DNA of 64,000 nucleotides from Elusimicrobiaceae bacterium (GCA_017475405.1 JAFVFN010000008.1:1254-65253), one strand, 5' to 3'. Shown: positions 13,787 to 47,427, counted from the stretch's first letter. Notes: generated by a model from the letters alone, not told the origin. Numbers and translations are program-made.

Positions 13787-14335
13787 ATGACAAGAAACAA
13801 AAAAGCATTTACACTAATCGAATTGCTCGTTGTAGTACTGATTACAGGAATTTTAGCAGCCGTGGCGGTACCACAATACCAAAAAGCAGTGGAAAAAAGT
13901 AAAGCTAGCGAGGCTCTAATATTACTTAAAACATTGGCCACTGCTCAAGAAGTATATTATTTAGCGAACGGATCTTATGCAGAGTCCTATACCGAATTAG
14001 ATATTGATATTCCCTGGACAGGAACAACAAAATTTAAACCCGATACTACCGACGCTGTATCCAATGCTGATTGGTCGGCGTCCCTACAGCAGAAGAGTGG
14101 TTATACGAACATTATGCTAGGCCGAATTACTGGTAAATATACAGGAGCTGGATTTATATGGGTACTTACAACAAAATCTGGCCTCAAAGAAAAACAAATC
14201 CTCTGCTTTGAACGGACCAATGGAACTTTTGTTTTTGATACCAACCTATCAAATGGGGCCTATTGCCAGCAAATCATAGGAGGAACTCCTGTTTCTGGCG
14301 GGGCCTCAGGCAGATATTACACCTTACCGTATTAA
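13787..14335 (+). CDS. Type IV pilin-like protein (prepilin cleavage/methylation domain)
   Basis: [31 protein letters not shown]; AGGAGA SD. Confidence 0.9.
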
Positions 14336-14447
14336 TAATTCTGTGTAAACACATGCAAGTAGAAAGCTCTCTAGAAAAAATACTAAAATATAAGAGTCCT
14401 TTTGGCTTTCAACCTTAAGTACAAATCTATTATTTAACGAGGTTCTG

Positions 14448-15527
14448 ATGGAAAAAGAGACCGTTCTAGTCGGCTTGTCCGGTGGGGTAGATTCTGCCGC
14501 TACAGCTGTACTTTTAAAAGAGCAGGGATACCATGTTATCGGTGCTACCATGCTGATTTGGGATCCGTCGCTCCCTGTCCCGAAAGAGGGACACCAAAAA
14601 AATGCCTGTTTGGCTCCGGAAAAAGAGGACTTACAAGAAGTAGAGTCTATTGTCAAAACATTGGGTATTGAGTTTTTGACGGTGGACTGCCGTGAACAAT
14701 ATAAACATACGGTGCTAGATAATTTCCGCTTGGAATATTCCTGCGGACGTACCCCCAATCCGTGTGTATTGTGTAACAGTTTAATCAAATTCGGTGTCCT
14801 TCCTAGCGCCGCTGCGAAACAGGGAATTAAGTTTGACAAATTTGCCACAGGACATTATGCCCGTGTGGAACAAGACCCTAAAACCGGGAAATACCTGCTT
14901 AAAAAAGCTGTGGATCTATCGCGTGACCAGAGCTACTTTTTACACCGTTTAAAACAGGAACAACTCTCCCATGTATTATTTCCGTTAGGTGAAAAAACAA
15001 AACCCGAAATCCGTGAAAAAGCACGTCAGGCCGGGTTGGTAGTCGCTGATAAAGAAGACAGTATGGATTTTTACTGCGGGGATTATAACGATTTATTAAA
15101 CTTCCCCAATAAACCCGGTGAACTGGTTACCTCAGACGGCAAAGTATTGGGACAACATAACGGGATTTGGAACTATACCATCGGCAAACGCAAAGGCCTG
15201 GGTCTAAGCGGATTTGCCGAGCCAATGTATGTAGTTAAAATTGATGCCGAAAAGAACCAAGTCATTATCGGCCCCAAAAGTGCATTGTACTCAGATACAC
15301 TGACTGCCACCAATGTCAGTTGGGTAGCTGGGGAACCGCCAGCCCAAACTTTTGACTGCGAAATCAAAATCCGCAATTTACATGTGCCGGCCAAAGCACA
15401 GGTAACGATAAACGAAGACGGTAGTTTTACAGCCAAGTTTACAGAGCCACAAATGTCTATTACTGCCGGACAAAGTGCCGTTATGTATAACGGGGACATT
15501 GTATTAGGCGGAGGAATTATCCAATAA
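14448..15527 (+). CDS. mnmA: tRNA 2-thiouridylase MnmA
   Basis: SGGVDS, TPNPCVLCN, ATGHYAR, RDQSYFL, TIGKRKGLG and TAGQSAV motifs. Confidence 0.95.
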   Translation: MEKETVLVGLSGGVDSAATAVLLKEQGYHVIGATMLIWDPSLPVPKEGHQKNACLAPEKEDLQEVESIVKTLGIEFLTVDCREQYKHTVLDNFRLEYSCGRTPNPCVLCNSLIKFGVLPSAAAKQGIKFDKFATGHYARVEQDPKTGKYLLKKAVDLSRDQSYFLHRLKQEQLSHVLFPLGEKTKPEIREKARQAGLVVADKEDSMDFYCGDYNDLLNFPNKPGELVTSDGKVLGQHNGIWNYTIGKRKGLGLSGFAEPMYVVKIDAEKNQVIIGPKSALYSDTLTATNVSWVAGEPPAQTFDCEIKIRNLHVPAKAQVTINEDGSFTAKFTEPQMSITAGQSAVMYNGDIVLGGGIIQ

Positions 15528-15548
15528 AACTTGTTCCTTTATCCAAAC

Positions 15549-15579
15549 AAAAAGTACGTGTATCAACCACGTACTTTTT
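15549..15579. terminator. Bidirectional intrinsic terminator (mnmA/dnaJ)
   Basis: AAAAAGTACGTG/CACGTACTTTT between convergent genes. Confidence 0.75.
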
Positions 15580-15603
15580 GTTATATGTTTTCGAGATTCC
15601 CTG

Positions 15604-16716
15604 TTATTTGCAAAACAAGTCTTTAAAGAAACTCTTTTTGCCGCCAGTTTCTTCAGCAAGTGCTTCTAATAATTCCTTTTGTTTAGCAGTCGGTTTCTTG
15701 AGGACCTCAATCTGTACATTGATTAATAAATCTCCAAAACCTTTCTTGCCCAGTTTAGGCATACCGTTACCCTGTACTTTAAGTACCTCACCAAATTGAG
15801 TTCCTTTGGGAATGGTCACTTCCATTTCTTTCCCCTCAATAGTAGGGACCTTGATTGTACCGCCTAATACGGCCTGCGGGTAAGTAATCGGAGCATCAAT
15901 AATTAAATTATCTCCTTCTCGGCGGAAAATCTTATGTTCTTTGACATGCACTTCTACGTACAAGTCTCCAAACCCGCCTCCGTTCTCACCAATGTCTCCG
16001 CCGTTGGATACGCGAAGCGTAACCCCGGTACGTACACCAGAGGGAACTTTGACTGTGATTTTTTCTTTGACGCGTTTGTGGCCCGTACCGCGGCATTCAC
16101 CACACGGTTTTTCAACCACCGTACCTTTCCCCCCGCAATCAGGACAAACCTGCCGCATACTAAAAATCCCTTGCGAATACGTTACCTGTCCGGATCCGCC
16201 GCAGGAACGACACGTCTTTCGGGCACTTCCCTGCGAGGCTCCGCTGCCGTCACACACTGAGCAGTTATCCAAGCGTGTATAATCTACTGGGATCTCTTTG
16301 CCGGAAAACGCTTCTTCCAAAGTTAGGGTTACATCGAGTTTAAGGTCTTCTCCGCGGGTTACGCGCGGTCCGCGGGAACGTCCGCCAAAAGCCCCTCCAA
16401 ACATATCCCCGAATACAGAACCGAAAATCTCATTAATATCCCCAAACCCGCTGGCATTAAAACCGCTAAAACCGCCAGCTCCGTTCACGCCTTCGTGGCC
16501 GTATTGGTCATACATGTGTTTTTTTTGCGGATCGGACAATACAGAAAAAGCTTCGTTTACTTTTTTAAATTGTTCCTCGGCATTTTTATCGCCGGGATTA
16601 CGATCGGGATGGTACTTCATGGCCTGTTTACGGAAGGCCGATTTAATTTCAACCTCGGTAGCCGTACGCTCAATACCAAGGATAGTATAATAATCTTCTT
16701 TCATAGTAGTTGGCAT
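15604..16716 (-). CDS. dnaJ: Chaperone DnaJ
   Basis: J domain with HPD, G/F region, four CxxCxGxG repeats; start 16716 or 16704. Confidence 0.95.
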   Translation of the reverse strand: MPTTMKEDYYTILGIERTATEVEIKSAFRKQAMKYHPDRNPGDKNAEEQFKKVNEAFSVLSDPQKKHMYDQYGHEGVNGAGGFSGFNASGFGDINEIFGSVFGDMFGGAFGGRSRGPRVTRGEDLKLDVTLTLEEAFSGKEIPVDYTRLDNCSVCDGSGASQGSARKTCRSCGGSGQVTYSQGIFSMRQVCPDCGGKGTVVEKPCGECRGTGHKRVKEKITVKVPSGVRTGVTLRVSNGGDIGENGGGFGDLYVEVHVKEHKIFRREGDNLIIDAPITYPQAVLGGTIKVPTIEGKEMEVTIPKGTQFGEVLKVQGNGMPKLGKKGFGDLLINVQIEVLKKPTAKQKELLEALAEETGGKKSFFKDLFCK

Positions 16717-16860
16717 AATAAATTCGTAGTTATATTTTAGCAAATCTAGCACTTATATAGCTAGTGTGCTACTTTAGATTTGGCATGCGCGTACGCTTTA
16801 TGCTATAATATAAGAGCTAAAAAGCGCTTTTTATAAAGTGCGCTGCTAGCGAGTTAACTT

Positions 16861-17169
16861 ATGTACGCAATTATTGAAACTGGTGGAAAACAGTACTGGG
16901 TAAAACCCGGTCAAGATCTGCAGGTTGAAAAGCTGGACGCGGAAGTAGGCGCCAACGTAGAACTCAAAGTTCTCTGGGCCGCTAACGAAGAAGGTACCTC
17001 AGCAGATACCAAAGCCGCTACTGCGGCCAAGGTCACCGCTCAAGTGGTCAAACACCTGAGAGGTCATAAAGTGATTGTCTATAAACGCCGCCCCAAAAAA
17101 GGGTATGAACGTACCCAGGGCCATAGACAAAACTTAACGCAAATTAAAATCACGGATATCCAGTTATAA
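16861..17169 (+). CDS. rplU: 50S ribosomal protein L21
   Basis: MYAIIETGGKQY and GHRQNLT motifs. Confidence 0.95.
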   Translation: MYAIIETGGKQYWVKPGQDLQVEKLDAEVGANVELKVLWAANEEGTSADTKAATAAKVTAQVVKHLRGHKVIVYKRRPKKGYERTQGHRQNLTQIKITDIQL

Positions 17170-17185
17170 ATTGGGAGACTAAACT

Positions 17186-17557
17186 ATGGCACATACAAAA
17201 GCTCAAGGTTCTTCCTCCAACGGAAGAGACAGCCACGGCCAACGTTTAGGGATTAAACGTTACGGCTCCCAGTTTGTAAACGCTGGGGAAATCATCGTAC
17301 GTCAACGCGGTACCAAGTTCCTGCCTGGAACCAACGTATCTCGCGCCAGCGACGACAGTCTCTTTGCCCGCGTAAGCGGTATTGTTACCTTTGAATGGGT
17401 AAGAAGAGGCAAACAACAAATTTCCGTGTACCCCAAAGTTGCGGAAACCAAAGAAGCCAAAGCGCCTGCTAAAAAAACTGCAGCCCCTAAAGCTGCCGCT
17501 AAAAAGGCGCCCGCCAAGAAAGCTGCCAAACCGGCTGCTAAAAAAGCGGACAAATAA
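17186..17557 (+). CDS. rpmA: 50S ribosomal protein L27 with Lys/Ala/Pro-rich C-terminal tail
   Basis: [24 protein letters not shown]; follows rplU. Confidence 0.95.
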
Positions 17558-17571
17558 ACATTTGGCAAATT

Positions 17572-17604
17572 AAGGCGGCGGGAATTTTTCCTGCCGCTTT
17601 TTTT
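17572..17604 (+). terminator. Intrinsic terminator after rpmA
   Basis: GCGGCGGGA/TCCTGCCGC stem plus T run. Confidence 0.75.
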
Positions 17605-17616
17605 GCCAGTAAAACC

Positions 17617-17775
17617 ATGAAACAAGACGATTTACACGTAGTACAGGACGAATGGAGCTACACCGTTACTAAAACATCGGCCCGTAAAAAAGCCAAGCGT
17701 ACTCGCCAAAAGGCGAAGCGGCAACTAAGCAAAAAGCTACTGGCACAAGACGACCCCGGTGAATCGTTGTTATAA
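17617..17775 (+). CDS. Putative 52-aa basic small protein
   Basis: Hand-translated MKQDDLHVVQDEWSYTVTKTSARKKAKRTRQKAKRQLSKKLLAQDDPGESLL; fills the rpmA-obgE gap; no clear SD. Confidence 0.4.
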   Translation: MKQDDLHVVQDEWSYTVTKTSARKKAKRTRQKAKRQLSKKLLAQDDPGESLL

Positions 17776-17783
17776 GGATTTTT

Positions 17784-19163
17784 ATGCAATCAGGCAGTTT
17801 TTTAGACCGTGTTAAAATTTACGTGACCGCTGGTAAAGGCGGAGACGGATGTTTGTCGTTTCGGCGCGAGAAATTCATTGAATTTGGCGGTCCGAACGGC
17901 GGTTGCGGCGGACGCGGGGGAGATGTGATCCTGCGTGCCGAACCAAATTTAACCACGCTCTTAGAACTAGCCTACCACCCGCATATTGACGCTCCTAACG
18001 GTGAAAAGGGAGGCTCTTACAATAAAACAGGCCGTGCCGGTGAAAACCGCTACGTATATGTACCCTGCGGTACCATTGTACGTACGTTGGAAGGAGAATT
18101 TTTAGTTGATATGACCAAACCTGGCCAAGAATTTACCGTGGCCAAGGGCGGTGCGGGTGGACGCGGGAACCAATCCTTTAAAACCCAGCAAAACACGGCT
18201 CCGCATATTGCCGAAAATGGACTCCCCGGAGAAGAAGTAACGTTGATTTTGGAGCTTAAAGTACTGGCCGATCTCGGACTCGTAGGATTCCCCAATGCAG
18301 GCAAAAGTACTTTCTTAAGCCGCATCTCGGCTGCCAGACCGCGTATCGCTAATTATGCGTTTACGACTTTGAACCCCAACTTAGGTATTACATTGCACCA
18401 AGGAGTTAGTTTTGCCACAGCTGATATCCCTGGTATCATTGAAGGGGCCAGTGAGGGGAAAGGACTGGGGATCCAATTTTTAAAACACATTGAACGCACC
18501 CGTGTATTACTACACTTAGTGGATCCAGAAGGATTTGACAGGCTAAGTGCAGAAGAGAGCGTTAAAGTTATTGAAAAAGAACTTAAAAACTTTAATAAAA
18601 AACTCTTTGAAAAACCACGTATTATAGCCGTAAATAAGGCCGATCTTCCTGCTGCCGAAAAAGTTTATAAAACTCTTAGTAAAAAGTTAAAAAAACATAA
18701 AGTAATGCTGATTTCAGCTGCTACGGGACTAGGTGTAAAAGAAGTACTTAACGAGGTGGTCCAAATCTTGTCATCCACCCCTGTTGAGCAACTCACTGTA
18801 GAAGAAGAAAAATCCGTAGTACATAAAGTAGAACCTATTTTTACCATTACGCGCGATGAAAACGATATTATCCATATCACAGGTAAAAAAGTAGAAGAGT
18901 TCATTGCCATGACTAATTTCACGCAACCCGAAGCCGTTACCCGATTAAAAGGTATTTTCAAAAAAATCGGACTTGAAAAAGCACTGCTTAAACAAGGCGT
19001 TCAGGATGGAGACCTGTTAGTCGTTGGCGGTAAAGAGTTTGAATGGAACGGCGATTTTGACGAAGAAGCTCCGCAAGCCCCTGAGCATGCCGGATACAAA
19101 CGCCGGGAAACCAAGGCCGAACGTTTAGCTAAACGCAAAGCAAGACGGGAAGGGAAAAAATAA
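17784..19163 (+). CDS. obgE: GTPase ObgE/CgtA with C-terminal OCT domain
   Basis: Gly-rich Obg fold, GFPNAGKS, YAFTTL, DIPG and NKAD motifs. Confidence 0.95.
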   Translation: MQSGSFLDRVKIYVTAGKGGDGCLSFRREKFIEFGGPNGGCGGRGGDVILRAEPNLTTLLELAYHPHIDAPNGEKGGSYNKTGRAGENRYVYVPCGTIVRTLEGEFLVDMTKPGQEFTVAKGGAGGRGNQSFKTQQNTAPHIAENGLPGEEVTLILELKVLADLGLVGFPNAGKSTFLSRISAARPRIANYAFTTLNPNLGITLHQGVSFATADIPGIIEGASEGKGLGIQFLKHIERTRVLLHLVDPEGFDRLSAEESVKVIEKELKNFNKKLFEKPRIIAVNKADLPAAEKVYKTLSKKLKKHKVMLISAATGLGVKEVLNEVVQILSSTPVEQLTVEEEKSVVHKVEPIFTITRDENDIIHITGKKVEEFIAMTNFTQPEAVTRLKGIFKKIGLEKALLKQGVQDGDLLVVGGKEFEWNGDFDEEAPQAPEHAGYKRRETKAERLAKRKARREGKK

Positions 19164-19176
19164 TTTTCCTTTCCTC

Positions 19177-19728
19177 TCAATAATTCCATCCATATATATT
19201 TGAAGACGACCAGGATACATCTGCCTCAGAATGATTTGTTTCATTTTTACAAATTTGATAGGGAATTCCCGTTTTATTTGATCCATATGCATAACAAACG
19301 GTTTTTCCCGGCGTACGATTAGAATGATTTAAATGGATAAAATATCCTAATACACGATCATGGACATCATCTGTTACTCCTGTTTGGTATAAAGAGCAGG
19401 AAACAGAAGCTACAACATCTTTAAATACCTCTAATCCGCATTCTCCCCATTTATAGTAATATGTTCCATAACTTTCCACTTCTGAAGTTCTTTCTGGCGT
19501 AGGGATTTCTATATCCAAATTTTGGATTCGATCAGTATAAGAACCTGTTGCTAAATAATATACTTCTTCTGCCGCGGCTATTGTTTTGGCTATATGTTTA
19601 ATAGTTGCAAAACGACTTTTCCACACCGCTTTTTGATATTGTGGCACCGCTACCGCTGCTAAAATTCCTATAATTAGCACTACTACCAAAAGCTCTATGA
19701 GCGTAAATGCTTGTTTATTTCCTTGCAT
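19177..19728 (-). CDS. Type IV pilin-like protein (no structured leader)
   Basis: [36 protein letters not shown]. Confidence 0.9.
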   Translation of the reverse strand: MQGNKQAFTLIELLVVVLIIGILAAVAVPQYQKAVWKSRFATIKHIAKTIAAAEEVYYLATGSYTDRIQNLDIEIPTPERTSEVESYGTYYYKWGECGLEVFKDVVASVSCSLYQTGVTDDVHDRVLGYFIHLNHSNRTPGKTVCYAYGSNKTGIPYQICKNETNHSEADVSWSSSNIYGWNY

Positions 19729-19762
19729 AATTATCTCTCCCTATTAGGTATTCTATAGAGAC

Positions 19763-19791
19763 AGAATATCAAAAAAAAAAAAACGCGTCAA
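19763..19791 (-). promoter_or_regulatory. Pilin promoter with poly(T)13 spacer tract (putative phase-variable)
   Basis: Minus strand TTGACG-CG(T13)GA-TATTCT, 17-bp spacer; A13 on + strand at 19771-19783. Confidence 0.7.
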
Positions 19792-19886
19792 GCGAAATTT
19801 TTGGTTCCACAGTTCAACCTGCTAGTGCAACTTTAGTTAGTTTTTATTGTTTGCCTTTTTTAACGATTTCTTGTTACAATGGATTT

Positions 19887-21973: not shown

Positions 21974-22008
21974 AGATTTTTGTTATAATAAAAGTGTAGC
22001 AAGAAGAA

Positions 22009-22210
22009 AATTTAATCTGTTTTTGGAAGCGTTTTAGAAACGCTGAGCTGTTATAAACTAACAGCACCAAGTAAGTCCAAAAACAGCTGTTTTAGGTACT
22101 ATACCCATAAGCTGATCCCTTGTTGGTATAGTGCCGAGTGTTTGCCACATGGTGGCAAGCCACGGCTGTTATTGATGGGTTACTTACTTGGACTCGGATA
22201 TAGCAGCCGT
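22009..22210 (+). ncRNA. Pilin leader structured RNA, copy 2
   Basis: P1 CTGTTTTTGG/CCAAAAACAG; pseudoknot CCAAGTAAGT (22067-76) with ACTTACTTGG (22182-91); terminal ACGGCTGTTAT/ATAGCAGCCGT; TGTTATAAT at 21981. Confidence 0.85.
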
Positions 22211-22251
22211 TTTTATTACGTATTTTCCAAAAACAAATTTTAGGAGAATAT

Positions 22252-22773
22252 ATGAAAAATAATAAACAAGCATTTACACTCATTGAGCTTTTAGTCGTTG
22301 TACTCATTATAGGAATTTTAGCATCAGTGGCCCTTCCTCAATACAGGAAAGCAGTTGATAAGGCTCATTTTACGGAATTACTAAATGCCATTCGACCTCT
22401 TAGAGATATGCAAGAAATTTACTACTTAGCAAATGGAGAATATGCTAAAGATTGCGAAGAATTAGGAGCCGAATTTCCTGGATATAATTTAAACTCAAAA
22501 AAACAATTAGTAAATAACAAAAACCATTTTGTACTAGATTGTCAACGCGGTATTACCGATGGAGATAATGGCTATGACCGAGTAGAAGGCCTTACCACCC
22601 CGATACAAATTACTTTTGGATTTATGTTATCACATGCAAAGTATGTAAATTCGCGTAATAAAATGTATTGTTATGCTGTAAATACAAGCACATATCATCA
22701 ACAATTGTGCCAAAGTTTTTGTGGAGAGTTAGAACCTATTTTATTCCAGGGCAAAGGATGCTATATGAATTAG
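22252..22773 (+). CDS. Type IV pilin-like protein
   Basis: [31 protein letters not shown]. Confidence 0.9.
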   Translation: MKNNKQAFTLIELLVVVLIIGILASVALPQYRKAVDKAHFTELLNAIRPLRDMQEIYYLANGEYAKDCEELGAEFPGYNLNSKKQLVNNKNHFVLDCQRGITDGDNGYDRVEGLTTPIQITFGFMLSHAKYVNSRNKMYCYAVNTSTYHQQLCQSFCGELEPILFQGKGCYMN

Positions 22774-22803
22774 AAATAGCCCGCTCATTAGAGCGGGCTA
22801 TTT
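22774..22803. terminator. Bidirectional terminator (pilin/rplA)
   Basis: AAATAGCCCGCTC/GAGCGGGCTATTT. Confidence 0.8.
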
Positions 22804-22824
22804 GTGTTTGCAAAAGAGAGTTTG

Positions 22825-23499: not shown

Positions 23500-23513
23500 C
23501 TAAATACTCCTTA

Positions 23514-23541: not shown

Positions 23542-23549
23542 GACTTAAA

Positions 23550-24782: not shown

Positions 24783-24857
24783 TGGCAGGAGCGGAAGGAC
24801 TCGAACCTTCAGTCCCGGTTTTGGAGACCGGTGGTTTACCAGTTAACCGACGCTCCC
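24783..24857 (-). tRNA. tRNA-Trp(CCA)
   Basis: Cloverleaf, anticodon loop CTCCAAA, GTTCGAG T-loop, encoded CCA. Confidence 0.95.
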
Positions 24858-24866
24858 ACAAAAAAC

Positions 24867-25028
24867 TTAAGAGGCTTTGCCTTCTTTATGTACAGTTTGT
24901 TTTCCGCAAGCTTTGCAGAATTTATTTAATTCTAACTTGTACTCTTTCTTTTTGCCGCGCACTTTATAATAGTTCTTGTTTTTGCATTCCGTGCAAATCA
25001 GCGCGATCGTCATTCTTTCAGTTGCCAT
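24867..25028 (-). CDS. rpmG: 50S ribosomal protein L33 (Zn-binding type)
   Basis: IALICTECKNKNY..LELNKFCKACGKQTVHKE. Confidence 0.95.
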   Translation of the reverse strand: MATERMTIALICTECKNKNYYKVRGKKKEYKLELNKFCKACGKQTVHKEGKAS

Positions 25029-25134
25029 CTTGTGTTTCCTTACAAAGGGATAATTTTGCCGTACGTTCACCTGCGCAGGGGCGGGATTTATCTCCCGCCC
25101 TGCGGCAGAGAACTAAACATGCAAAGTACTGCGT

Positions 25135-26325
25135 TTACTCAATAATTTTGGTTACTACACCAGCGCCTACGGTGTGGCCACCTTCGCGGATAGCGAAGCG
25201 TAAACCTTCTTCCATAGCTACCGGGGTAATAAGTTTTACTTCAATTTCGGCATTATCGCCAGGCATAATCATGTCTTGATCAAAAGACAATTCACCGGTT
25301 ACGTCCGTGGTGCGGAGGTAAAATTGCGGTTTATAGCCTTTGGCGAGCGGAGTGTGGCGTCCGCCTTCTTCTTTTTTCAAGATGTAAACTTGGCCTTTGA
25401 AGTGTTTGTGCGGGGTTACCGTTTTCGGAGCAGCCAATACCTGACCGCGTTCTACTTGGTTCTTATCAATACCGCGCAACAAGATACCGACGTTATCACC
25501 GGCGATACCTTCGTCTAAGAGTTTGCGGAACATTTCGATACCGGTGGCTACCGTATTCATGGTATCGCGGAAGCCGATGATTTCCAACGGATCACCGACG
25601 TGTACCTTACCGCGTTCAATTCTACCGGTGGCTACCGTACCACGACCGGTGATGGAGAATACGTCTTCCACAGCCATCAAGAACGGTTTATCGGTTTCGC
25701 GTTTAGGTTCAGGAATCCAGCTGTCCAAGGCTTCCATTAAGCGTTTAATGCAGGGTTCGCCCAGTTCGCTCTGATCGCCTTCAATGGCTTTCAAAGCAGA
25801 ACCGCGTACGATCGGTGTATTATCACGATCAAATTCATATTTGCCCAGTAAGTCGCGGATTTCTTCTTCAACGAGGTCTAACAAATCTTTGTCATCAACC
25901 AAGTCTACTTTGTTCAAAAATACAACGAGTTTCGGTACGTTTACCTGTTTGGCAAGCAGTACGTGTTCGCGGGTTTGGGGCATCGGACCGTCCACGGCGG
26001 ATACTACCAAGATAGCACCGTCCATTTGGGCAGCGCCGGTAATCATGTTTTTAATATAGTCGGCGTGTCCGGGGCAGTCAATGTGCGCATAATGGCGGTT
26101 GTCGGATTCATATTCTACGTGAGATACAGCTACCGTTACGATTTTGGAAGCGTCACGTACTACACCGCCTTTGGCGATATCGGTATAAGCCATAGCTTTG
26201 GCTTTACCCTCTTTCGCTAATACTTTGGTAATAGCGGTAGTGAGCGTGGTCTTACCGTGGTCTACGTGTCCAATGGTACCGACGTTCACGTGCGGTTTGC
26301 TGCGAGAAAATTTCTCTTTAGCCAT
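25135..26325 (-). CDS. tuf: Elongation factor Tu
   Basis: [30 protein letters not shown] and [10 protein letters not shown]; atypical switch I. Confidence 0.97.
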
Positions 26326-26364
26326 TTGTTTAGTTCTCCTTAATTTATTTCTTAGTTTTCAGTA

Positions 26365-26437
26365 AGCTGGGAGTGGGAATCGAACCCACGACCTTTTCCT
26401 TACCATGGAAATGCTCTACCTACTGAGCTACCCCAGC
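26365..26437 (-). tRNA. tRNA-Thr(GGT), copy 1
   Basis: Cloverleaf, TTTCC-ATGGTAA-GGAAA anticodon arm. Confidence 0.93.
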
Positions 26438-26463
26438 GCTACTTTGATTACTTCAAATTTATC

Positions 26464-26536
26464 AGCTGGGAGTGGGAATCGAACCCACGACCTTTTCCTT
26501 ACCATGGAAATGCTCTACCTACTGAGCTACCCCAGC
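26464..26536 (-). tRNA. tRNA-Thr(GGT), copy 2 (identical)
   Basis: Exact duplicate of 26365-26437. Confidence 0.93.
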
Positions 26537-26549
26537 GACTCAAATTCTT

Positions 26550-26620
26550 AGCGGGCGAAGGGAATCGAACCCTCGTCACAAGCTTGGAAGGCTAGTGTTC
26601 TACCATTGAACCACGCCCGC
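26550..26620 (-). tRNA. tRNA-Gly(TCC)
   Basis: Cloverleaf, anticodon loop CTTCCAA. Confidence 0.93.
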
Positions 26621-26821
26621 AAAACAATACCCTAATATTATACAAAAAATTATTGCAGCTTCCAAATATTTTTCTGCGTGGGTACCGTCAAAAAGGACCC
26701 CCGTAGGGGTCTATATATTTTTATTATAACAAATTACATAAAAGAGTGCAACAAAATTGTTTATAAAAATATTTTTAAATTAGGCCTTGAAATTTTTTTG
26801 TTTTCCATTATAGTACTAGTA

Positions 26822-26922
26822 AGGGAGTGCCACTTAGGCCCGTTTTAAGGGTATGCCTCTTGTAGGGGAATCGGCCTCCCTGCTAGATTTGAACTCCGGC
26901 ATTATGGGTGCCGGAGTTCTTG
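26822..26922 (+). ncRNA. Candidate small structured RNA
   Basis: TTGAAA-16-TATAGT promoter; GGGAGtGCC/GGCCTCCC closing stem; then 11-bp GAACTCCGGCA/TGCCGGAGTTC hairpin. Confidence 0.35.
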
Positions 26923-27150
26923 TGATATTTGCCAAAAGAGTTTGTTCGCCGTCGTTTTCTAATATAAGCACCTTCAAACTCAGACAAATAAATAGATATT
27001 TCTCTAAATAATAATGAGGATTTTCTTAATAGATTCTCACTTCAAGTTCGTATTTCAATCTTTACAGAAAGCAGCGCCCAACTCAGAATTATTATAACTA
27101 AAATATAGCGGCTTAATATGCAACTTATGCACAAAATATAAAAAGAAGAA

Positions 27151-27222
27151 AGGTGCGGGTGGGAATCGAACCCACGAATAAGAGTTTTGCAGACTCTCGC
27201 CTTACCACTTGGCCACCGCACC
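27151..27222 (-). tRNA. tRNA-Cys(GCA)
   Basis: Cloverleaf, anticodon loop CTGCAAA, U discriminator. Confidence 0.95.
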
Positions 27223-32972: not shown

Positions 32973-32987
32973 GTTCTAAACAACCTA

Positions 32988-33013
32988 AACAAGGGGCTTA
33001 CAAGCCCCTTGTT
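32988..33013. terminator. Bidirectional terminator (murC/pilin)
   Basis: AACAAGGGGCTT/AAGCCCCTTGTT. Confidence 0.8.
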
Positions 33014-33116
33014 TTTCGTTACAATGCTTTTCTTCTTGGTATTCTAAGAATCTGTAAAAGAATTCACCATATGAATGTACATTGTGCAATGTTTTACTAA
33101 CGGATTTATCCTTGGA

Positions 33117-33656
33117 TTAGTTATACTTCCACTCTGTATACCCTGCTGATTTTGGAGTATGTGTCGGGACTATAAGACCTGTTTCTAATTTACACAATCT
33201 ATTGGACAAATGATCTAAATCCGTAGTATAGGCTATACATTGCTCCCATTTAGACCTTGATAAATTTCCCTTCTCATAATACTGTTTATAAAAAACATCA
33301 ATACCACCTACTTCCGTTCTACAAGCAATAGCCGTACCATAACTCCGACACTCCCACCCATCAAACAAATAAATAATCTTGGTTACCTCGTCATTTTCAC
33401 CCCTATCCTTTTCTTCTTCATATCCGGCAGGGAGATCTACATCTAAAACCGCTAAATCTATTGCATATTTTCCGTTGGCTAGGAAATATACTTCCTGCGC
33501 TTGAACTATACTTTTCACTAAAAGTTTTAATCTAGCAAATCTACTTTTTGCCACAGATATTTGGTATTGTGGCACAGCTACTGCTGCCAAAATCCCTATT
33601 ATTAATACTACAACGACTAATTCAATTAGCGTAAACGCTTGTTTATTTAGTTTCAT
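33117..33656 (-). CDS. Type IV pilin-like protein
   Basis: [36 protein letters not shown]; AAGGAGA SD before ATG 33656. Confidence 0.9.
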   Translation of the reverse strand: MKLNKQAFTLIELVVVVLIIGILAAVAVPQYQISVAKSRFARLKLLVKSIVQAQEVYFLANGKYAIDLAVLDVDLPAGYEEEKDRGENDEVTKIIYLFDGWECRSYGTAIACRTEVGGIDVFYKQYYEKGNLSRSKWEQCIAYTTDLDHLSNRLCKLETGLIVPTHTPKSAGYTEWKYN

Positions 33657-33706
33657 AATATTTCTCCTTATATGCTTCAATTCTCTGTTATGAAACCCAA
33701 TAAAAA

Positions 33707-33908
33707 ACGGCTGTCTCTTTTGAGCTCATAGGAGTGACCCAATCAAAACAGCCGTGGTCTACCGCAAGACGGTAAACGCTCGGCACAACATAATGGGATT
33801 ATAAGTTCCATCATGCTGTACCTAAAACAGCTGCTTTTGGACTCCTATGATGCCTTTAATATTTAAAAGCTCTCCGTTTCTTAAACGGTTCCAAAAACAG
33901 ATCAAATT
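33707..33908 (-). ncRNA. Pilin leader structured RNA, copy 3
   Basis: Minus strand: TTGCTA-17-TATACT promoter; P1 CTGTTTTTGG/CCAAAAGCAG; pseudoknot TCATAGGAGT (33841-50) with ACTCCTATGA (33726-35); terminal ACGGCTGT/ACAGCCGT plus T run. Confidence 0.85.
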
Positions 33909-33968
33909 ATATGTATAGTATAAGAAGTTTTTTGCTTTTTAGCAAGAAAAATATTTCAAAAAAATGGC

Positions 33969-37614: not shown

Positions 37615-37643
37615 ATTATACAAAAATACACAAAATATTACAA
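37615..37643 (-). promoter_or_regulatory. Sigma70 promoter of the glmU-prs-rplY-pth operon
   Basis: Minus strand TTGTAA-17-TATAAT overlapping the 3' end of the frameshifted pilin. Confidence 0.7.
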
Positions 37644-38204
37644 AAGTACACAAATTCGCCATCCCAGGCGGGCTTTCCACCAAGTCCCTCACAAACAGCA
37701 CGGTGCAGTCCATAATAAGAAGCCGTCTTAATCGTCGTGGCAATGCAAGCTCCCTGATGTGCCAGAGGATCATCTTCTTCCCTGGTTGCATCTACACGCG
37801 CATTGACCCATAAACTAAGTGTATCCTGCCCCTCCTGATTGATACTCAGCCCTATCAAACGACAGGAACTCGGCTCTATTTGTCTGCCGTCTTTATCTGT
37901 ATCTCCGGCCGAAGTACACCAAATACTCATATCACCTTTTTTATAAAGGCTTTCATCTACCTCTTGATAACATTCCCATGCAAAACCGGCAGGTAAAAAC
38001 TCTGCTAATTCAGGTTCAACAGGGCAATGACCCTCCAGTGAGCGTACCTCTACTAAATTAGAGATTCGTCGTCCCAAAGATAATAATTTGGCAACGGGTT
38101 TTCCAAACTGCTTTTTGATATTGAGGCACAGCAATGACCGTTAATACCCCTATAATGATAACAACGACCAAAAGTTCCAATAATGTAAATCCATGACTAC
38201 GCAT
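37616..38204 (-). pseudogene. Frameshifted type IV pilin-like gene
   Basis: ATG 38204 reads [37 protein letters not shown] then stops 11 codons later; the pilin body (AKLLSLGRRI...) continues in the frame of ORF 37616..38134; shift near 38092. Confidence 0.8.
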
Positions 38205-38320
38205 ACTATACCTCATTACTGATAGTGTACATGGTATTACTTTAAAACATGGGTCAAAAGACCTACGTAATTTTAAGGCCTATCCCTGGAATTTATGTTA
38301 TAATAAAAGTGTAGTAATAA

Positions 38321-38524
38321 AATTTAATCTGTTTTTGAAACCGTCTAAGAAGCGGGTTGCTTTAGCAAAACTAAAGTTTCAGTGAGTTCAAAAGCAGTCG
38401 ATTAGGTACAACGCCAACGGAATTGCAAACCTGTTACGTTGTGCTAAATGTTTATCGCATTCGTGTGATAAACTACGGCTGTTATATATTGGGTAACTCA
38501 CTGAGCTCAAAAAATAGCAGCCGT
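38321..38524 (+). ncRNA. Pilin leader structured RNA, copy 4
   Basis: TGTTATAAT at 38296; P1 CTGTTTTTGA/TCAAAAGCAG; pseudoknot TCAGTGAGTT (38379-88) with AACTCACTGA (38495-504); terminal ACGGCTGTTAT/ATAGCAGCCGT. Confidence 0.85.
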
Positions 38525-38573
38525 TTTATTGGGTTTCATAACAGATCGCTGACTACGATTAAGGAGATAAGTT

Positions 38574-39059
38574 ATGAAATCAAATATACAAGCATTTACA
38601 TTAATTGAGCTACTCGTTGTTGTGCTGATTATAGGCATGCTAGTGGCTGTAGCCATACCACAGTATAAGAAAGCTGTTCTTAAAAGTCGTTTAGCCGCTA
38701 TTAAACCTATTTTATCGGCCATTAAAACAGCTGAAGAATCCTATTATTTGGCTAATGGAGAATATACTTATAATATGGATTTATTGGATATTGGGAGTAG
38801 TTGTTCTAGAGAAGCAGATGTAAGTTTGGTCCGATGTGATCCCTATTTTTTAATAGATATTATGGGAGATAGCGGAACCAATTTGAACTGGCGATATATA
38901 GAAGCTGCCTATTGTTTAGGCAAAAAAGTCACATGGAGCGAGTGCGAACCAGCCGATTTTTATTATAGGAGATGGTACAACTACTCAACCTATCCCAATA
39001 AGGAAGAATGTATAGGTGTAACCGACATAGGCAAAGAAATGTGCAAAAGTATAAACTAA
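38574..39059 (+). CDS. Type IV pilin-like protein
   Basis: [36 protein letters not shown]. Confidence 0.9.
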   Translation: MKSNIQAFTLIELLVVVLIIGMLVAVAIPQYKKAVLKSRLAAIKPILSAIKTAEESYYLANGEYTYNMDLLDIGSSCSREADVSLVRCDPYFLIDIMGDSGTNLNWRYIEAAYCLGKKVTWSECEPADFYYRRWYNYSTYPNKEECIGVTDIGKEMCKSIN

Positions 39060-39065
39060 ATAATT

Positions 39066-39098
39066 ATGGGCATCACAATAAGACTTGTGATGCCCTAT
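39066..39098. terminator. Terminator hairpin between pilin and atpC
   Basis: GGGCATCACAA/TTGTGATGCCC. Confidence 0.7.
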
Positions 39099-39114
39099 AT
39101 AACCAATTAAACAA

Positions 39115-39530: not shown

Positions 39531-39531
<1 letters not shown>
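39115..39531 (-). CDS. atpC: ATP synthase F1 epsilon
   Basis: LVTPEK, GEMGILPGH and GGFVEV motifs. Confidence 0.93.
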
Positions 39532-40961
<1,430 letters not shown>

Positions 40962-41867
40962 TTAACTGTTAAGAGCTTCTGCTCCGTTGACAATATCTAA
41001 AATTTCATTGGTAATACCGGACTGACGTACTTTATTTAGTTTAACACCCAACGCGGTGACCAGTTCTCCGGCGTTCTTACTGGCTGCATCCATGGCATTC
41101 ATGGTGGCTGCCAAGTTCGCAGCTTGAGATTCCAAAAGCACGCGGTATAAATTCGCCTTTATAAGCCGCGGAACCAATAATTTAAAAATTTCCAAAAGTC
41201 CGGGCTCAAACTCAAAATCACGGACCTCTTTTTCTTTTTTTACCTGCTCAAAATCAAAAGGCAACCATTGACGTTCTACTAACGTTTGGCTGGCCAGCGA
41301 TTTAAAATCATTGTAAATCAATGTGACAGAAGCCAGTTTCTCATCCAAAAAAGTCTTGAGTACCGCATCCCCCAAAAGCTCGGCATGTGCATAAGACACT
41401 TTGGGGAATATCCCCACGCTCTCATAGGTTAAATGCAAGTTACGCATTTTAAGGCGGTTCAAAAAGTCACGTCCCTTTTTGCCGATCGCAAAAATAAAAA
41501 TCTCTTTGTCTTTATTTCGACGTAAAAACGCCAGGGCACTTCGTAAAATTACTGCGTTAAAAGAGCCAGTTAAGCCTTTGTCCCCTGTAATAACAATAAG
41601 TCCTATTTTATGTGGATCTCCGCTACGGTTTACAAAAATACGACCGGCCCAGTTTTCACTGCCGTCCTCGGGTTGCGGCAACGCCAAAATATCCTGTTTT
41701 AAATCGTCTACCATTTCAAGCATTTTTTTAGCAAACGGACGAGCGGCTATCATGGAGTCCTGCGCTTTGCGGATGCGTGCATTGGAGATCATCTTCATCG
41801 TCTGCATGATCTGTTGAGTGGACTTGATAGCTTTAATATTTTGGCGTATGTCGCGTAACGATTCCAT
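40962..41867 (-). CDS. atpG: ATP synthase F1 gamma
   Basis: STQQIMQTMKMIS, DKGLTGSFN and NKVRQSGITNEI motifs. Confidence 0.95.
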   Translation of the reverse strand: MESLRDIRQNIKAIKSTQQIMQTMKMISNARIRKAQDSMIAARPFAKKMLEMVDDLKQDILALPQPEDGSENWAGRIFVNRSGDPHKIGLIVITGDKGLTGSFNAVILRSALAFLRRNKDKEIFIFAIGKKGRDFLNRLKMRNLHLTYESVGIFPKVSYAHAELLGDAVLKTFLDEKLASVTLIYNDFKSLASQTLVERQWLPFDFEQVKKEKEVRDFEFEPGLLEIFKLLVPRLIKANLYRVLLESQAANLAATMNAMDAASKNAGELVTALGVKLNKVRQSGITNEILDIVNGAEALNS

Positions 41868-42806
41868 TTATCTGTTTTCCGCTTTTAAGATTTTTACGTA
41901 ATCGGCAATCCCCGTCTCCAAGGTATAATCCGGGGTATATCCCAGTTTTTCTTTGGATTTGGTAATATCTGCCTGCGTTTTTACTTGGAAAAACGCCGCA
42001 TACGGGTTGTCAATATATTCAGGTTCCAAGTGGGTCCCCATCTCTTTGTTTAAGCACGCAATCATTTCATTATAATCGCGCGGGATACCCGTAGCCGCGT
42101 TATAGACACCGGATTCTTTACCGTTATTTAACGCACACAAATTGATTTTCACGATATCTTTTACATAGACAAAATCACGTTGTTGTTCGCCCATTTTGAA
42201 AACACGAGGGCGTTTGCCTTCTTTCATTTGCAAATACAACTGATAGACCATACTGGCCATTTTGCCCTTATAATATTCGCCGGGACCATATACGTTAAAA
42301 TAACGCAATCCAATCACTGTCATATCATGGTTTTCTTCTACAAATTGGCGAGCGACGTTATCCATAACCGCCTTGGAAAACCCATAAATATTTTCCGGAT
42401 GGGTGGGTTGTGTTTCCACATTGGGAACCGGACCGTTGCCATATGTGGCGGCCGAAGAAGCATAAACCACTTTTTTGATCCCATTTTCCGCAGCAAAATT
42501 AAGCAAATTTTTAAACGCTTCTACGTTTTGCTCCATCATGGCCTTTTGGTCCATGACTGTTGTATCGGTAATAGCCGCTTCGTGAAAGATAGTATCAAAA
42601 TACATATCTCCCAATAAAGTTTGGAATAAATCTGCAGCAATCACATCCCCTTTAAAACCAATCAGGTTTTTAAAGTGTCCGTTTTTAGAAAAGTCATCCA
42701 ATACGGTTACTTCATGTCCCTGGGCTTCCAACGTTTTGGCAATATTGCTGCCGATAAAACCGGCTCCGCCTGTTACTAAATATTTTTTTCTGTTTTTAGC
42801 GTCCAT
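41868..42806 (-). CDS. rfaD: ADP-L-glycero-D-manno-heptose 6-epimerase-like NAD-dependent epimerase
   Basis: GGAGFIGS, YASSAATYG, YGFSK and RYFNVYGPGEYYKGKMAS motifs. Confidence 0.85.
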   Translation of the reverse strand: MDAKNRKKYLVTGGAGFIGSNIAKTLEAQGHEVTVLDDFSKNGHFKNLIGFKGDVIAADLFQTLLGDMYFDTIFHEAAITDTTVMDQKAMMEQNVEAFKNLLNFAAENGIKKVVYASSAATYGNGPVPNVETQPTHPENIYGFSKAVMDNVARQFVEENHDMTVIGLRYFNVYGPGEYYKGKMASMVYQLYLQMKEGKRPRVFKMGEQQRDFVYVKDIVKINLCALNNGKESGVYNAATGIPRDYNEMIACLNKEMGTHLEPEYIDNPYAAFFQVKTQADITKSKEKLGYTPDYTLETGIADYVKILKAENR

Positions 42807-42815
42807 AAATTCTCC

Positions 42816-44871
<2,056 letters not shown>

Positions 44872-44872
44872 A

Positions 44873-45367
44873 TTATTTCCCTTTAACTTCCTCTAAAACT
44901 TGTGCCACAATCTGATCAGCCGCGTTGTCAGTAACCTGACGCCCCACTACGCGCGAAGCCGCTAACAAGCTGATAGAGGCAATCTCGCCGCGCACATCAG
45001 ACAGAGCTTTGTTTTTTTCCGCCTCAATTTGTACTTTGGCCTGCTCTATCAGTTTTTCGGCTTGTACTTTGGCTTGCGCTAAGAGATGATCCCGTTGAGC
45101 TTCACCCAGTTTAACGGCCTGTGCCATTTTTTTGGCGGCCTCATCCGATATTTGCGCTAAACGTGCGTCCAGTTCTTGTTTAAGTTGTTCGGCACTTTGG
45201 CGTGCATCGGCAGCCGTTTGCTTGTCTGCGGCAATTTGTGTTTCGCGTTTCTCCAGAGCTTCAATAATTGGTCCCCACGCAAATTTTTTAAGCAAATACA
45301 CCAAAAGCAAAAAGTTACAAACCGTTAGCGCCAATACGCCGTAATCCGGCTTTAACAAATCTTCCAT
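44873..45367 (-). CDS. atpF: ATP synthase Fo subunit b
   Basis: N-terminal TM FLLLVYLLKKFAWGPI plus coiled coil. Confidence 0.92.
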   Translation of the reverse strand: MEDLLKPDYGVLALTVCNFLLLVYLLKKFAWGPIIEALEKRETQIAADKQTAADARQSAEQLKQELDARLAQISDEAAKKMAQAVKLGEAQRDHLLAQAKVQAEKLIEQAKVQIEAEKNKALSDVRGEIASISLLAASRVVGRQVTDNAADQIVAQVLEEVKGK

Positions 45368-45370
45368 AAA

Positions 45371-45601
45371 TTATTTCATGACCATCGTCAGTAAGCAGAT
45401 CACCAAGCCTAACATCGCAGCCCCTTCTAACAAAGCGGCAATAATGATCATCGTGGTACGCAGATCAGAAGCGGCTTCCGGTTGGCGGGCAGAACCTTCC
45501 AGAGCAGCAGCGCCGATTTTACCAAGTCCAAACCCGGCACCCAATACTACCAATCCTGCACCGATACCGGCGGCGATATATTTAAGTGCTACTAGTTCCA
45601 T
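45371..45601 (-). CDS. atpE: ATP synthase Fo subunit c (H+-type motif)
   Basis: GxGxGxG, ARQPE loop, LLEGAA; start MELVALKY with AAGGAG SD. Confidence 0.93.
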   Translation of the reverse strand: MELVALKYIAAGIGAGLVVLGAGFGLGKIGAAALEGSARQPEAASDLRTTMIIIAALLEGAAMLGLVICLLTMVMK

Positions 45602-45639
45602 ACTTTTCTCCTTAGCGGATACGTCCGCTGTTATAAAAT

Positions 45640-46401
45640 TTAATGCGTATGTATAACCGATCCTGCAAAAATAGCAGTCAGCAGGGTAAACACATACGCT
45701 TGTAAAAACGCGACTAACAACTCTAAACACGTCATAAAAATTTCTAATACCATGGCGGGCAATAAGGCTCCTACTCCGGCAGCTTTACTCATACCACCCA
45801 CAATAAAGATAATCAGTAAAAGACAAATCAGTACCATGTGCCCCGAGAGCATATTGGCAAATAAACGAATAGCCAGCACACAGACTTTAATAATAAGACT
45901 CACTACTTCCAACGGGAAAATAAGCGGCACCAGCCACTTCGGCGTACCCGACGGTACAAACCCTTTTAAAAAACCAATGAAGCCATGATACTTAAGACCG
46001 CTAAACACAATCAGTGCTCCCGAACACAACGCAAGCGCTGCCGTTACAGAAATATTAGACGTAGCGGTCTTCATTTCTGGGATCATACCTACTAAATTTA
46101 CCGATAAAATAAACAAAAAAAGTGTACAAAAATACGGCAACATTCCACGTCCTTCTTGTCCCATATTAGGAAGTACCATCCCGTCGCGGATAAACGAAAC
46201 ATATTCTTCTAAAAGCGTAGTAACTAAACGCCCGGCGCGACTGGTGTGTTTGCGCGTGGCCCATGCAAGCGTTAAAATAAGAAGTATACTAACGGTAAAA
46301 ATAGTAACCGAATGGGTAGTAACCGGGAGACGAAATCCGTTGAATACCACTCCCCAATCGTGGTCTAAAATATGGTGAGATATTGTTTCAGCTACGTCCA
46401 T
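45640..46401 (-). CDS. atpB: ATP synthase Fo subunit a
   Basis: LAIRLFANMLSGH and LQAYVFTLLT motifs. Confidence 0.93.
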   Translation of the reverse strand: MDVAETISHHILDHDWGVVFNGFRLPVTTHSVTIFTVSILLILTLAWATRKHTSRAGRLVTTLLEEYVSFIRDGMVLPNMGQEGRGMLPYFCTLFLFILSVNLVGMIPEMKTATSNISVTAALALCSGALIVFSGLKYHGFIGFLKGFVPSGTPKWLVPLIFPLEVVSLIIKVCVLAIRLFANMLSGHMVLICLLLIIFIVGGMSKAAGVGALLPAMVLEIFMTCLELLVAFLQAYVFTLLTAIFAGSVIHTH

Positions 46402-46633
46402 GTTTATCAACCTTTTTCAAATCTATATTTGCTTGACGAGCAACACTGATAATGCGCCACAACCCGAAAGCAAATCCTACTAAAACTCCCCCTACCAAAC
46501 ACCAGGGCAAAGAGCCCAGTTTCCCATCTAACCAATAGCCCGTTACGGCCCCAATAATTTCTGTTAGTGCAAACTCAGTACCTAAAGAAGTAATCTCTAA
46601 ATGGTCTTTAGCACTAAACGGACCTAGTGGCAT
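46388..46633 (-). CDS. AtpZ/AtpI-family membrane protein
   Basis: GYWLDGKLGSLPW..GFAFG; first gene of the atp operon. Confidence 0.8.
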   Translation of the reverse strand: MPLGPFSAKDHLEITSLGTEFALTEIIGAVTGYWLDGKLGSLPWCLVGGVLVGFAFGLWRIISVARQANIDLKKVDKHGRS

Positions 46634-46731
46634 GGAATAAATTCTCCTCTAGCAGGGGATACTTACATTATAAAAAATTAGAGAAGAAAATTCACAAGAA
46701 ATTTTGTTATAATGAAAGTGATGTAAACTAA

Positions 46732-46916
46732 AATTTAATCTATTTTTGAGCCGCATATAGATGCGGGTTTGCTTAATAAGCATCCATCGAAGTCAAAAAT
46801 AGCCGATTAGGTACAATGGGACCGTACATCCTGTTGTACCAAATGCTTATCGTTTATCACGATAAGCTACGGCTGTTGTATTGAGCTTCTTCGATGGGGA
46901 TTAATACAGCAGCCGT
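46732..46916 (+). ncRNA. Pilin leader structured RNA, copy 5
   Basis: TGTTATAAT at 46705; P1 AATCTATTTTTGA/TCAAAAATAGccGATT; pseudoknot CCATCGAAG (46784-92) with CTTCGATGG (46889-97); terminal ACGGCTGTTGTATT/AATACAGCAGCCGT. Confidence 0.85.
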
Positions 46917-46953
46917 TTTCTGTGAATGTGTCTAAAAATAGATAGGAGAAATT

Positions 46954-47427
46954 ATGAAAACAAATAAACAAGCATTCACACTCATTGAACTTTTGGTTGT
47001 CGTGTTAATTATAGGGATACTGGCAGCTGTAGCTTTGCCACAATATCAAATAGCTGTTTTTAAATCTCGTATTACACAAGCAATACCGTTTGTAAAAACT
47101 CTTAAAGAAGCACAAGAAATATATTATTTAGCGAACGGAGAATATACAAATCATATTGAAAATCTAGATATTGATACAGGAATATGTCCCATAGGCTGGA
47201 AATGTTCGGTAAATACAACAGCTGTTAGAGCACAATGGTATGAGAATGATAAGTATATCTTGGCTTTAGTATATAGCCTAAACCATAGAAAAGACTCCCT
47301 CTCTAGAAGAGCAGGGAAATTATACTGTTATACCAAAACAACTAGTCAAATAGGAATGCGCGTCTGTAAAACTATGGGAGAAGAATTTTCACGTTCAGAT
47401 AGTGAAATCCTATATGTCTTAAATTAA
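46954..47427 (+). CDS. Type IV pilin-like protein
   Basis: [35 protein letters not shown]. Confidence 0.9.
   Translation: MKTNKQAFTLIELLVVVLIIGILAAVALPQYQIAVFKSRITQAIPFVKTLKEAQEIYYLANGEYTNHIENLDIDTGICPIGWKCSVNTTAVRAQWYENDKYILALVYSLNHRKDSLSRRAGKLYCYTKTTSQIGMRVCKTMGEEFSRSDSEILYVLN

Follow-up and report, generated by a model that had tools for sequence, protein, structure and literature searches.

The stretch of DNA analysed, referred to as the window, comprises 64,000 nucleotides (nt) from an Elusimicrobiaceae bacterium (C18:1254-65253 of genome G000, a metagenome-assembled genome (MAG) of 1.68 Mb in 30 contigs). It carries seven dispersed type IV pilin-like genes, designated P1 to P7, within 34 kb. 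Pilin open reading frames (ORFs) in the window were located by a motif scan and translation, and the flanking genes were identified by an NCBIfam scan. The pilin genes and the hairpins next to them are listed in window coordinates; position -1 is the residue before the predicted signal peptide cleavage site.

13787-14335, plus strand: P1, pilin of 182 amino acids (aa) with Ala at -1, co-directional between an HD-GYP regulator gene and mnmA
19177-19728, minus strand: P2, pilin of 183 aa, convergent with obgE, 13-nt gap
22252-22773, plus strand: P3, pilin of 173 aa, convergent with rplA, 51-nt gap
22774-22803, no strand: hairpin between P3 and rplA, 13-base-pair (bp) stem, probable bidirectional terminator
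32987-33014, no strand: hairpin between murC and P4, 12-bp stem
33117-33659, minus strand: P4, pilin of 180 aa, ATG at 33659, convergent with murC, 144-nt gap
37616-38204, minus strand: P5, frameshifted pilin with Gly at -1, co-directional, upstream of glmU, with neither of the two 5' modules described below
38574-39059, plus strand: P6, pilin of 161 aa, convergent with atpC, 55-nt gap
39068-39095, no strand: hairpin between P6 and atpC, 11-bp stem
46954-47427, plus strand: P7, pilin of 157 aa, convergent with a GH13 gene, 12-nt gap, and divergent from the atp operon

An earlier note, made from the sequence of the window, had described five of these genes as lying tail-to-tail with obgE, rplA, murC, atpC and a GH13 gene, three of them across a terminator hairpin. 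All five neighbours were confirmed by the NCBIfam scan. A strong hairpin is present in three of the five convergent gaps, and the remaining two gaps are just 12-13 nt long. For P4, the longest ORF extends to 33680, upstream of the ATG chosen at 33659. The seven paralogues counted in the earlier note comprise six intact genes and one frameshifted copy, P5, in which the N-terminus (ATG at 38204, minus strand) and the body (to 37616) are in different frames. The P5 frameshift was found in all other assemblies of the same strain that cover the gene, and the orthologue in congener L084 (9316-9997) is intact, with 187 residues counted from the -1 residue; P5 is therefore a real pseudogene and not an assembly error. 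In line with the earlier note, no transposase or recombinase was found among the window ORFs, all but a few small ones having been scanned, and no T2SSE ATPase, A24 peptidase or secretin was found on the window's contig.

The six intact proteins passed the cut-offs of both PF07963 (27-35 bits, cut-off 21.2) and TIGR02532 (23-30 bits, cut-off 16.3). All other models that matched them did so below cut-off and over residues ~5-90 only. These six have a common N-terminal motif, with K/Q-A immediately before the cleavage site and PQYQ.AV.KS further along. The signal motif M-x(4-12)-(A/G)-FTLIEL, cleaved before FTLIEL, recurs in ~240 copies in the genome; a short basic leader peptide ends in a small residue at -1, and the mature protein would start with Phe and have Glu as its fifth residue (+1 and +5). 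Across 206 copies the -1 residue is Ala in 144 and Gly in 62, and it is Ala in all six intact window pilins. A structure was predicted for P6, the sole pilin modelled, by AlphaFold2 with 75 homologues (predicted local distance difference test score 91.5). The model has a 52-residue N-terminal helix (residues 10-61), a five-stranded sheet and a C-terminal helix, the 'lollipop' form of a pilin with a globular head. When the model was compared with the PDB, the only meaningful matches were the gonococcal pilin structures 5vxx_A and 1ay2_A, with a probability of 0.96-0.99.

Beyond residue 35, the number of cysteines is even in 201 of the 206 copies, and the cysteines are conserved within the P6 subfamily. 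The C-terminal domains (C-domains) of the window pilins share at most 25-35% identity over partial lengths, and to call them 'unrelated-looking', as the earlier note did, is fair at that level; most of them are nonetheless distant homologues, with 144 of the 206 genome copies joining one single-linkage cluster. In a collection of 5.8 billion proteins, P6 has no relative between 100% and 56% identity. Genes for processing and assembly lie elsewhere in the genome, which has one A24 prepilin peptidase (PilD, contig C17), two PilT-like ATPases (C17 and C11) and two loci with a secretin and an ATPase (C3 and C23), one of which then carries four divergent pseudopilin-like genes. Orthologues can differ at -1, P2 having Ala where its counterpart in L001, the closest relative, has Gly; both residues are presumably accepted by the one PilD of the genome.

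Genome-wide, ~240 N-terminal motifs and 249 hidden Markov model matches to the family were found among ~1645 crudely called genes (15%). Pilin coding sequence makes up 8.0% of the 1.68-Mb genome, or ~10% when the 5' modules are included. Because there are ~249 pilins in 1.68 Mb, seven in 34 kb are the norm and not a local peak. Single pilin genes account for 188 of the 216 runs, and roughly 2% of copies (approximately five) stop early at sites not near a contig end. Relatives for comparison were Elusimicrobiaceae MAGs from cattle, yak, sheep and other guts, found via rplA, glmU and mnmA. Genomes of 145 species of the family contain between 0 and 217 exact copies of the coding motif FTLIELLVV, with about 5 to 217 in congeners and 206 here. 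Pilin counts in MAGs are lower bounds because the family breaks short-read assemblies: 22 of the 60 contig ends of this genome lie within 500 nt of a pilin gene. Several public contigs begin ~90 nt upstream of a pilin ATG.

The clustering of contig ends at pilins, in a genome that is itself a MAG, would also be expected if the pilins were collapsed or chimeric repeats misplaced between housekeeping genes by assembly or binning. The likelihood of such an artefact is negligible, since the same pilins were found at the same junctions in independent metagenome assemblies, on contigs of up to 255 kb, and the C-domains are unique sequences.

For the analysis of placement, junctions were classed between the genes that remain after pilins are removed. 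Among the convergent junctions, 62 of 196 hold a pilin (31.6%); the corresponding counts are 31 of 191 (16.2%) for divergent and 100 of 979 (10.2%) for co-directional junctions (chi-square p = 2.6e-14). Where a co-directional junction holds a single pilin, the pilin is antisense to both neighbours in 65 of 84 cases (p = 5e-7). The 3' end of a pilin meets the 3' end of its neighbour in 151 of 226 cases, compared with 30% for other genes. A preference for the lagging strand (head-on to replication) was considered as the cause of the convergent bias and ruled out: the leading-strand share is 59% for pilins and 58% for other genes, and the placement bias is therefore not a replication-strand effect. 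The view that the genes occupy 'safe' sites thus holds genome-wide, convergent junctions being occupied three times as often as co-directional ones and the antisense orientation being preferred within the latter. Their description as lying at 'housekeeping operon boundaries' is largely what would be expected of any intergenic gene when a genome of 1.7 Mb is so densely coded; what counts as a signal is the bias towards convergent and antisense positions. This bias may reflect selection for transcriptional insulation, possibly together with a tolerance of insertion where no promoter is disrupted.

Two classes of 5' module were distinguished among the 206 copies: 86 belong to class 1, 107 to class 2 and 13 to neither. 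Class 1 has the form TTGACG-CG-T12-GA-TATTCT...AAGGAGAG..ATG, a sigma-70-type promoter with a T-tract spacer between -35 and -10. Class 2 consists of an extended -10 promoter (TGnTATAAT or TGCTATACT) followed by a leader of ~230 nt with four helical domains. Leader helix P1 (CUGUUUUUGG/CCAAAAACAG) encloses two hairpins and is followed by leader helices P2 and P3, and the leader ends in a terminator-like hairpin (ACGGCUGUU...AACAGCCGU) with a U run. The 3' strand of leader helix P1 (AAACAGCCG) repeats the 3' arm of the terminator, and an antiterminator pairing in the class 2 leader is therefore possible. P2 is the only class 1 gene in the window, and P1, P3, P4, P6 and P7 belong to class 2. Their 5' modules are located as follows.

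13525-13786 (start approximate), plus strand: class 2 module of P1, with extended -10 promoter TGCTATATT and terminator-like hairpin at 13691-13738
19763-19791, minus strand: class 1 promoter of P2, TTGACG-CG-T13-GA-TATTCT
21975-22251, plus strand: class 2 module of P3, with leader helix P1 at 22017-22086 and terminator-like hairpin at 22162-22210
33660-33968, minus strand: class 2 module of P4, with terminator-like hairpin at 33707-33755
38330-38573 (start approximate), plus strand: class 2 module of P6, with hairpin at 38475-38524
46724-46953 (start approximate), plus strand: class 2 module of P7, with hairpin at 46869-46916

No Rfam family matches the leader, at either gathering or E-value thresholds, and the pattern of leader helix P1 is present in 104 of the 145 family genomes. 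Both modules are almost exclusive to pilins, class 1 being upstream of a pilin in 92 of 94 occurrences and class 2 in 55 of 55, and promoter, leader and pilin are thus a self-contained unit, as the earlier note had proposed. The class of module is uncoupled from the type of head: genome-wide, genes with related heads share their 5' class at a rate of 0.475, against 0.446 +/- 0.022 expected by chance. The possibility of a sigma-54 promoter was raised by the sequence and dismissed; this sigma factor has been reported to be absent from Elusimicrobium minutum. Several class 1 and class 2 pilins of this genome (for example on C3 and C4) are in divergent pairs with a fixed junction, …GATATCAAAAAAAAAAAACGCGTCAAG-N~15-TGCTATAAT…, in which the two promoter types stand back to back at a conserved spacing.

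Homopolymers in promoter spacers are a feature of Mycoplasma hyorhinis vlp, Neisseria opc and porA, and Bordetella fim. The pilins resemble vlp-type families in being a multigene family of putative surface proteins with a conserved promoter, leader and signal and a variable mature part, and here the spacer homopolymer is present in 86 class 1 genes; the vlp genes are clustered, whereas the pilins are dispersed. In the most far-reaching reading, the ~250 pilins would provide antigenic or adhesive variation free of an expression site, each gene being switched singly by slippage of its T tract or through its own leader so that only one or a few heads are displayed per cell, with the 5' repeats shuffling modules and driving inversions. 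The variable, covarying hairpins of the leader would then be gene-specific addresses for trans-acting RNAs or proteins. Such a system is unlikely. Among the 86 class 1 paralogues the tract is T12 in 80, T13 in 4, T9 in 1 and T10 in 1. The tract of P2 is T13 in the window and T12 in 7 other assemblies of the same strain, in which the upstream ~100-130 nt are otherwise identical, and the difference may be due to slippage or to an error in assembling the homopolymer. In contrast to vlp, opc, porA and fim, the tract is nearly uniform at T12, with one T13 against seven T12 at P2, and half of the family uses an RNA leader instead. The tract data do not show phase variation.

The earlier note had suggested that related genomes be searched for empty sites, and these were found at three of the window's junctions. 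In congeners with the same flanking order, the gap between atpC and glmU is 36-53 bp in three species and 685-1741 bp where it contains one or two pilins; here it is 1480 bp. The gap between the GH13 gene and atpI is 68-72 bp in two congeners and 794 bp here. The HD-GYP gene and mnmA are directly adjacent in ~20 congeners, and P1 is therefore a gain on this lineage. The insert at P1 is ~850 bp long, consists only of promoter, leader and coding sequence, and ends ~40 nt past the stop codon. Given the empty sites, the paralogues are not fixed at orthologous positions across the family. The site next to rplA is occupied in approximately 8 of 56 relatives, and some junctions without a pilin in this genome, such as that after mnmA, are occupied in other species.

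Different species can also have pilins with dissimilar C-domains at the same junction. Between L086 (6825-7827) and L087 (9012-10000), two congeners, identity is 82-100% in atpC, glmU and the 5' portion of the leader, and the 3' portion of the leader and the pilin body cannot be aligned, a contrast which suggests that the body was exchanged while the 5' portion was conserved. In two other species, L171 and L173, the P6-type homologues nearest in sequence (47-53% identity) are not at atpC; each immediately follows a NUDIX gene and is convergent with the gene beyond it, so that the architecture is the same and the site is different. The P2 orthologue in L001 adjoins rplA and is orthologous to P2, not to P3. 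It is 91% identical to P2 over the first 34 residues, 77% over the first 66 residues and 40% in the head, where the cysteine motifs are kept. The numbers of substitutions per non-synonymous (dN) and synonymous (dS) site are 0.55 and 1.25 for the C-domain, compared with 0.006 and 0.66 for rplA. The head of P2 thus changes ~90 times faster than rplA at non-synonymous sites, near the neutral rate, while its reading frame stays open and its cysteines are kept. The h386-h330 block between P2 and P3 (19177-22773) is inverted relative to several congeners (L004, L178, L186, L188 and L179), in which the order is rplA> h330> <obgE, and L188 has another block flanked by a pair of inverted pilins. Breaks of synteny in this part of the genome are frequently found at pilins, as if the dispersed 5' repeats mediated rearrangements.

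The clean ~850-bp addition of P1 between the HD-GYP gene and mnmA in this lineage only, the presence or absence of pilins at other junctions and the enrichment of convergent junctions would all be consistent with an active mobile cassette, a unit that is now copied or moved into terminator-proximal sites by a dedicated recombinase or as a non-autonomous element. The same model would explain a feature of some class 1 genes, in which a sharply bounded block of ~180 bp (about -90 to +90) is 96-100% identical in front of unrelated heads. These blocks indicate that recombination between paralogues has occurred. They do not extend to a genome-wide homogenisation of the DNA for the N-terminal region, which was considered and rejected: third codon positions are only 0.41-0.46 identical, and near-identity of the N-terminal DNA is confined to a subfamily of class 1, conservation otherwise being at the protein level. 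Present mobility is quite improbable. The window ORFs scanned include no transposase or integrase, and no terminal inverted repeats, attC-like site or target-site duplication were seen when occupied and empty junctions were compared by eye at P6, P7 and P1, where the insert extends from the promoter to ~40 nt beyond the stop codon. The best C-domain identity between any two paralogues is 72%, most best matches being 30-50%, and no positional differences were found among at least eight assemblies of the strain. With no transposase among the scanned ORFs, no end repeats at the junctions compared and no C-domain pair above 72%, there is no demonstrable recent copying. Of the earlier proposal that the unit was 'repeatedly copied', gain and loss over the divergence of species stand, and a live process does not: the copying is a history on the scale of species divergence and not a demonstrable current activity, and the units are fixed within the strain.

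Strain-level stability was examined on consensus sequences. P4 to P7 were found in the same places in the independent same-strain assemblies that cover them, with 0.0% differences in nearly all features. The only pilin variant among the assemblies is P7 in L164 (13639-14010), which is 123 aa long instead of 157 aa and has 1.2% differences in the C-domain. The family shares several features with Neisseria pilE/pilS: the predicted products are type IVa-like pilins with a conserved N-terminal helix and a hypervariable C-terminal region (disulfide-bonded in Neisseria), and the P6 model best matches gonococcal pilin. A large family that is conserved towards the 5' end and variable towards the 3' end, together with mosaic 5' blocks that show past recombination between paralogues, could point to antigenic variation of the Neisseria type, in which silent partial copies alter the sequence of one expressed locus through gene conversion. 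This is highly improbable. In contrast to pilE/pilS, there are no silent truncated copies, there is no single expression locus and no strain-level sequence change was seen, P4, P6 and P7 being without sequence difference across assemblies save for the one truncated P7. Early ends affect only ~2% of copies, and the 5' class is uncoupled from the type of C-domain. Because every copy has its own promoter, ribosome-binding site, ATG, signal peptide and full N-terminal helix, a silent-cassette system is effectively excluded, in agreement with the earlier note.

Taken together, these results make it rather probable that the window's seven genes represent a wider, lineage-specific expansion of autonomous type IVa-pilin-like units that are placed at junctions, turn over between species and are fixed within the strain. 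Each unit comprises its own promoter, one of the two family-specific 5' modules, a class III signal peptide with the first helix, and a fast-evolving head rich in paired cysteines. Units are mostly placed singly in intergenic junctions, with a preference for the 3'-3' arrangement and for the orientation opposite to the neighbours, a placement that would keep housekeeping transcription out of the pilin and pilin transcription out of the neighbours. At these junctions units have been gained, lost and replaced as the species of the genus diverged. Their products would be processed by the one PilD and would then enter the two secretin/ATPase machines, whose genes lie at other loci. Judging from gene anatomy, the cell may select the heads it displays by transcriptional control at the 5' modules and not by DNA recombination into an expression site. 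The variation repertoire controlled by expression that the earlier note envisaged is plausible on the same grounds.

Several observations weigh against this account. The prevalence of T12, in 80 of 86 paralogues and 7 of 8 P2 assemblies, resembles a fixed spacer and not a switch found in different states. One leader type is common to ~107 genes, which predicts co-regulation and not a choice of one gene at a time. PilD substrates almost always have Gly at -1, and the Ala found in 144 of 206 copies is atypical. The relatives are MAGs that break at pilin repeats, so that counts and some apparent absences are uncertain, and the junction statistics depend on a crude ORF-based gene caller.

The first two of these observations also count in favour of a constitutive, broad-spectrum set, in which most of the ~250 genes would be co-expressed at a low level, with no switching, and the diversity of heads would serve breadth of ligands. 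The products could form a mixed coat of adhesin or binding heads, or could be membrane-anchored binding proteins of the periplasm or surface that merely use PilD processing, like archaeal bindosome proteins. Co-regulation is what would be predicted from two 5' modules that cover 193 of the 206 genes, and the near-invariant T tract, the stability of the loci within the strain and the retention of paired cysteines and subfamily motifs by C-domains across species all agree with such a set. Three points stand against it, none of them decisive: a leader of ~230 nt that carries a terminator, and perhaps an antiterminator as well, would be costly for constitutive genes, the antisense, insulated placement suggests that tight individual control matters, and the C-domains diverge near the neutral rate. 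A constitutive set is possible but doubtful, and the expansion of autonomous, transcriptionally controlled units is preferred.

In the literature searched, no description was found of this expansion, its placement bias, the two 5' modules or the turnover at junctions. A 2009 study by Herlemann et al. reportedly describes many pilE-like genes in E. minutum. This species belongs to the same phylum and family, and its small genome is similar in having many pilin-like genes with a prepilin-type N-terminus and, at other loci, pilus or type II secretion machinery; the expansion here amounts to ~250 genes, or 15% of all genes. Planctomycetes, Verrucomicrobia and Lentisphaerae carry expansions of H-X9-DG proteins (DUF1559, TIGR04294), with dozens to hundreds of dispersed genes per genome. 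These families are similarly dispersed and have a class III signal peptide. In contrast to them, the H-X9-DG domain (TIGR04294) was not detected in the NCBIfam scan of the six intact proteins, NCBIfam models match only the N-terminal ~70 residues, and the body is predicted by the P6 model to be a small pilin-like alpha/beta head.

A gut bacterium with a 1.7-Mb genome that spends 8-10% of its DNA on ~250 separately controlled pilins must depend on them for its way of life. Conceivable roles are attachment, nutrient capture, and evasion of phage or host. The data show in numbers how a compact genome can accommodate a large family of putative surface proteins, as single units in insulated junctions that turn over while the flanks stay. 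Two control designs, a homopolymer-spacer promoter and a long attenuator-like leader without an Rfam match, are applied to one protein family, which makes it a natural test bed for comparing them. If expression proved to be selective, bacteria could vary their surface in this way with no expression site and no gene conversion.

Two further features of the window were recorded. Five minus-strand transfer RNA genes, identified by Rfam matches, lie near tuf and nusG at 24786-27222. A probable replication origin is marked by gyrA, gyrB, dnaN and dnaA on the minus strand (49061-57036); gene directions diverge from ~55-57 kb of the window, and the guanine-cytosine (GC) skew changes sign near 55 kb.

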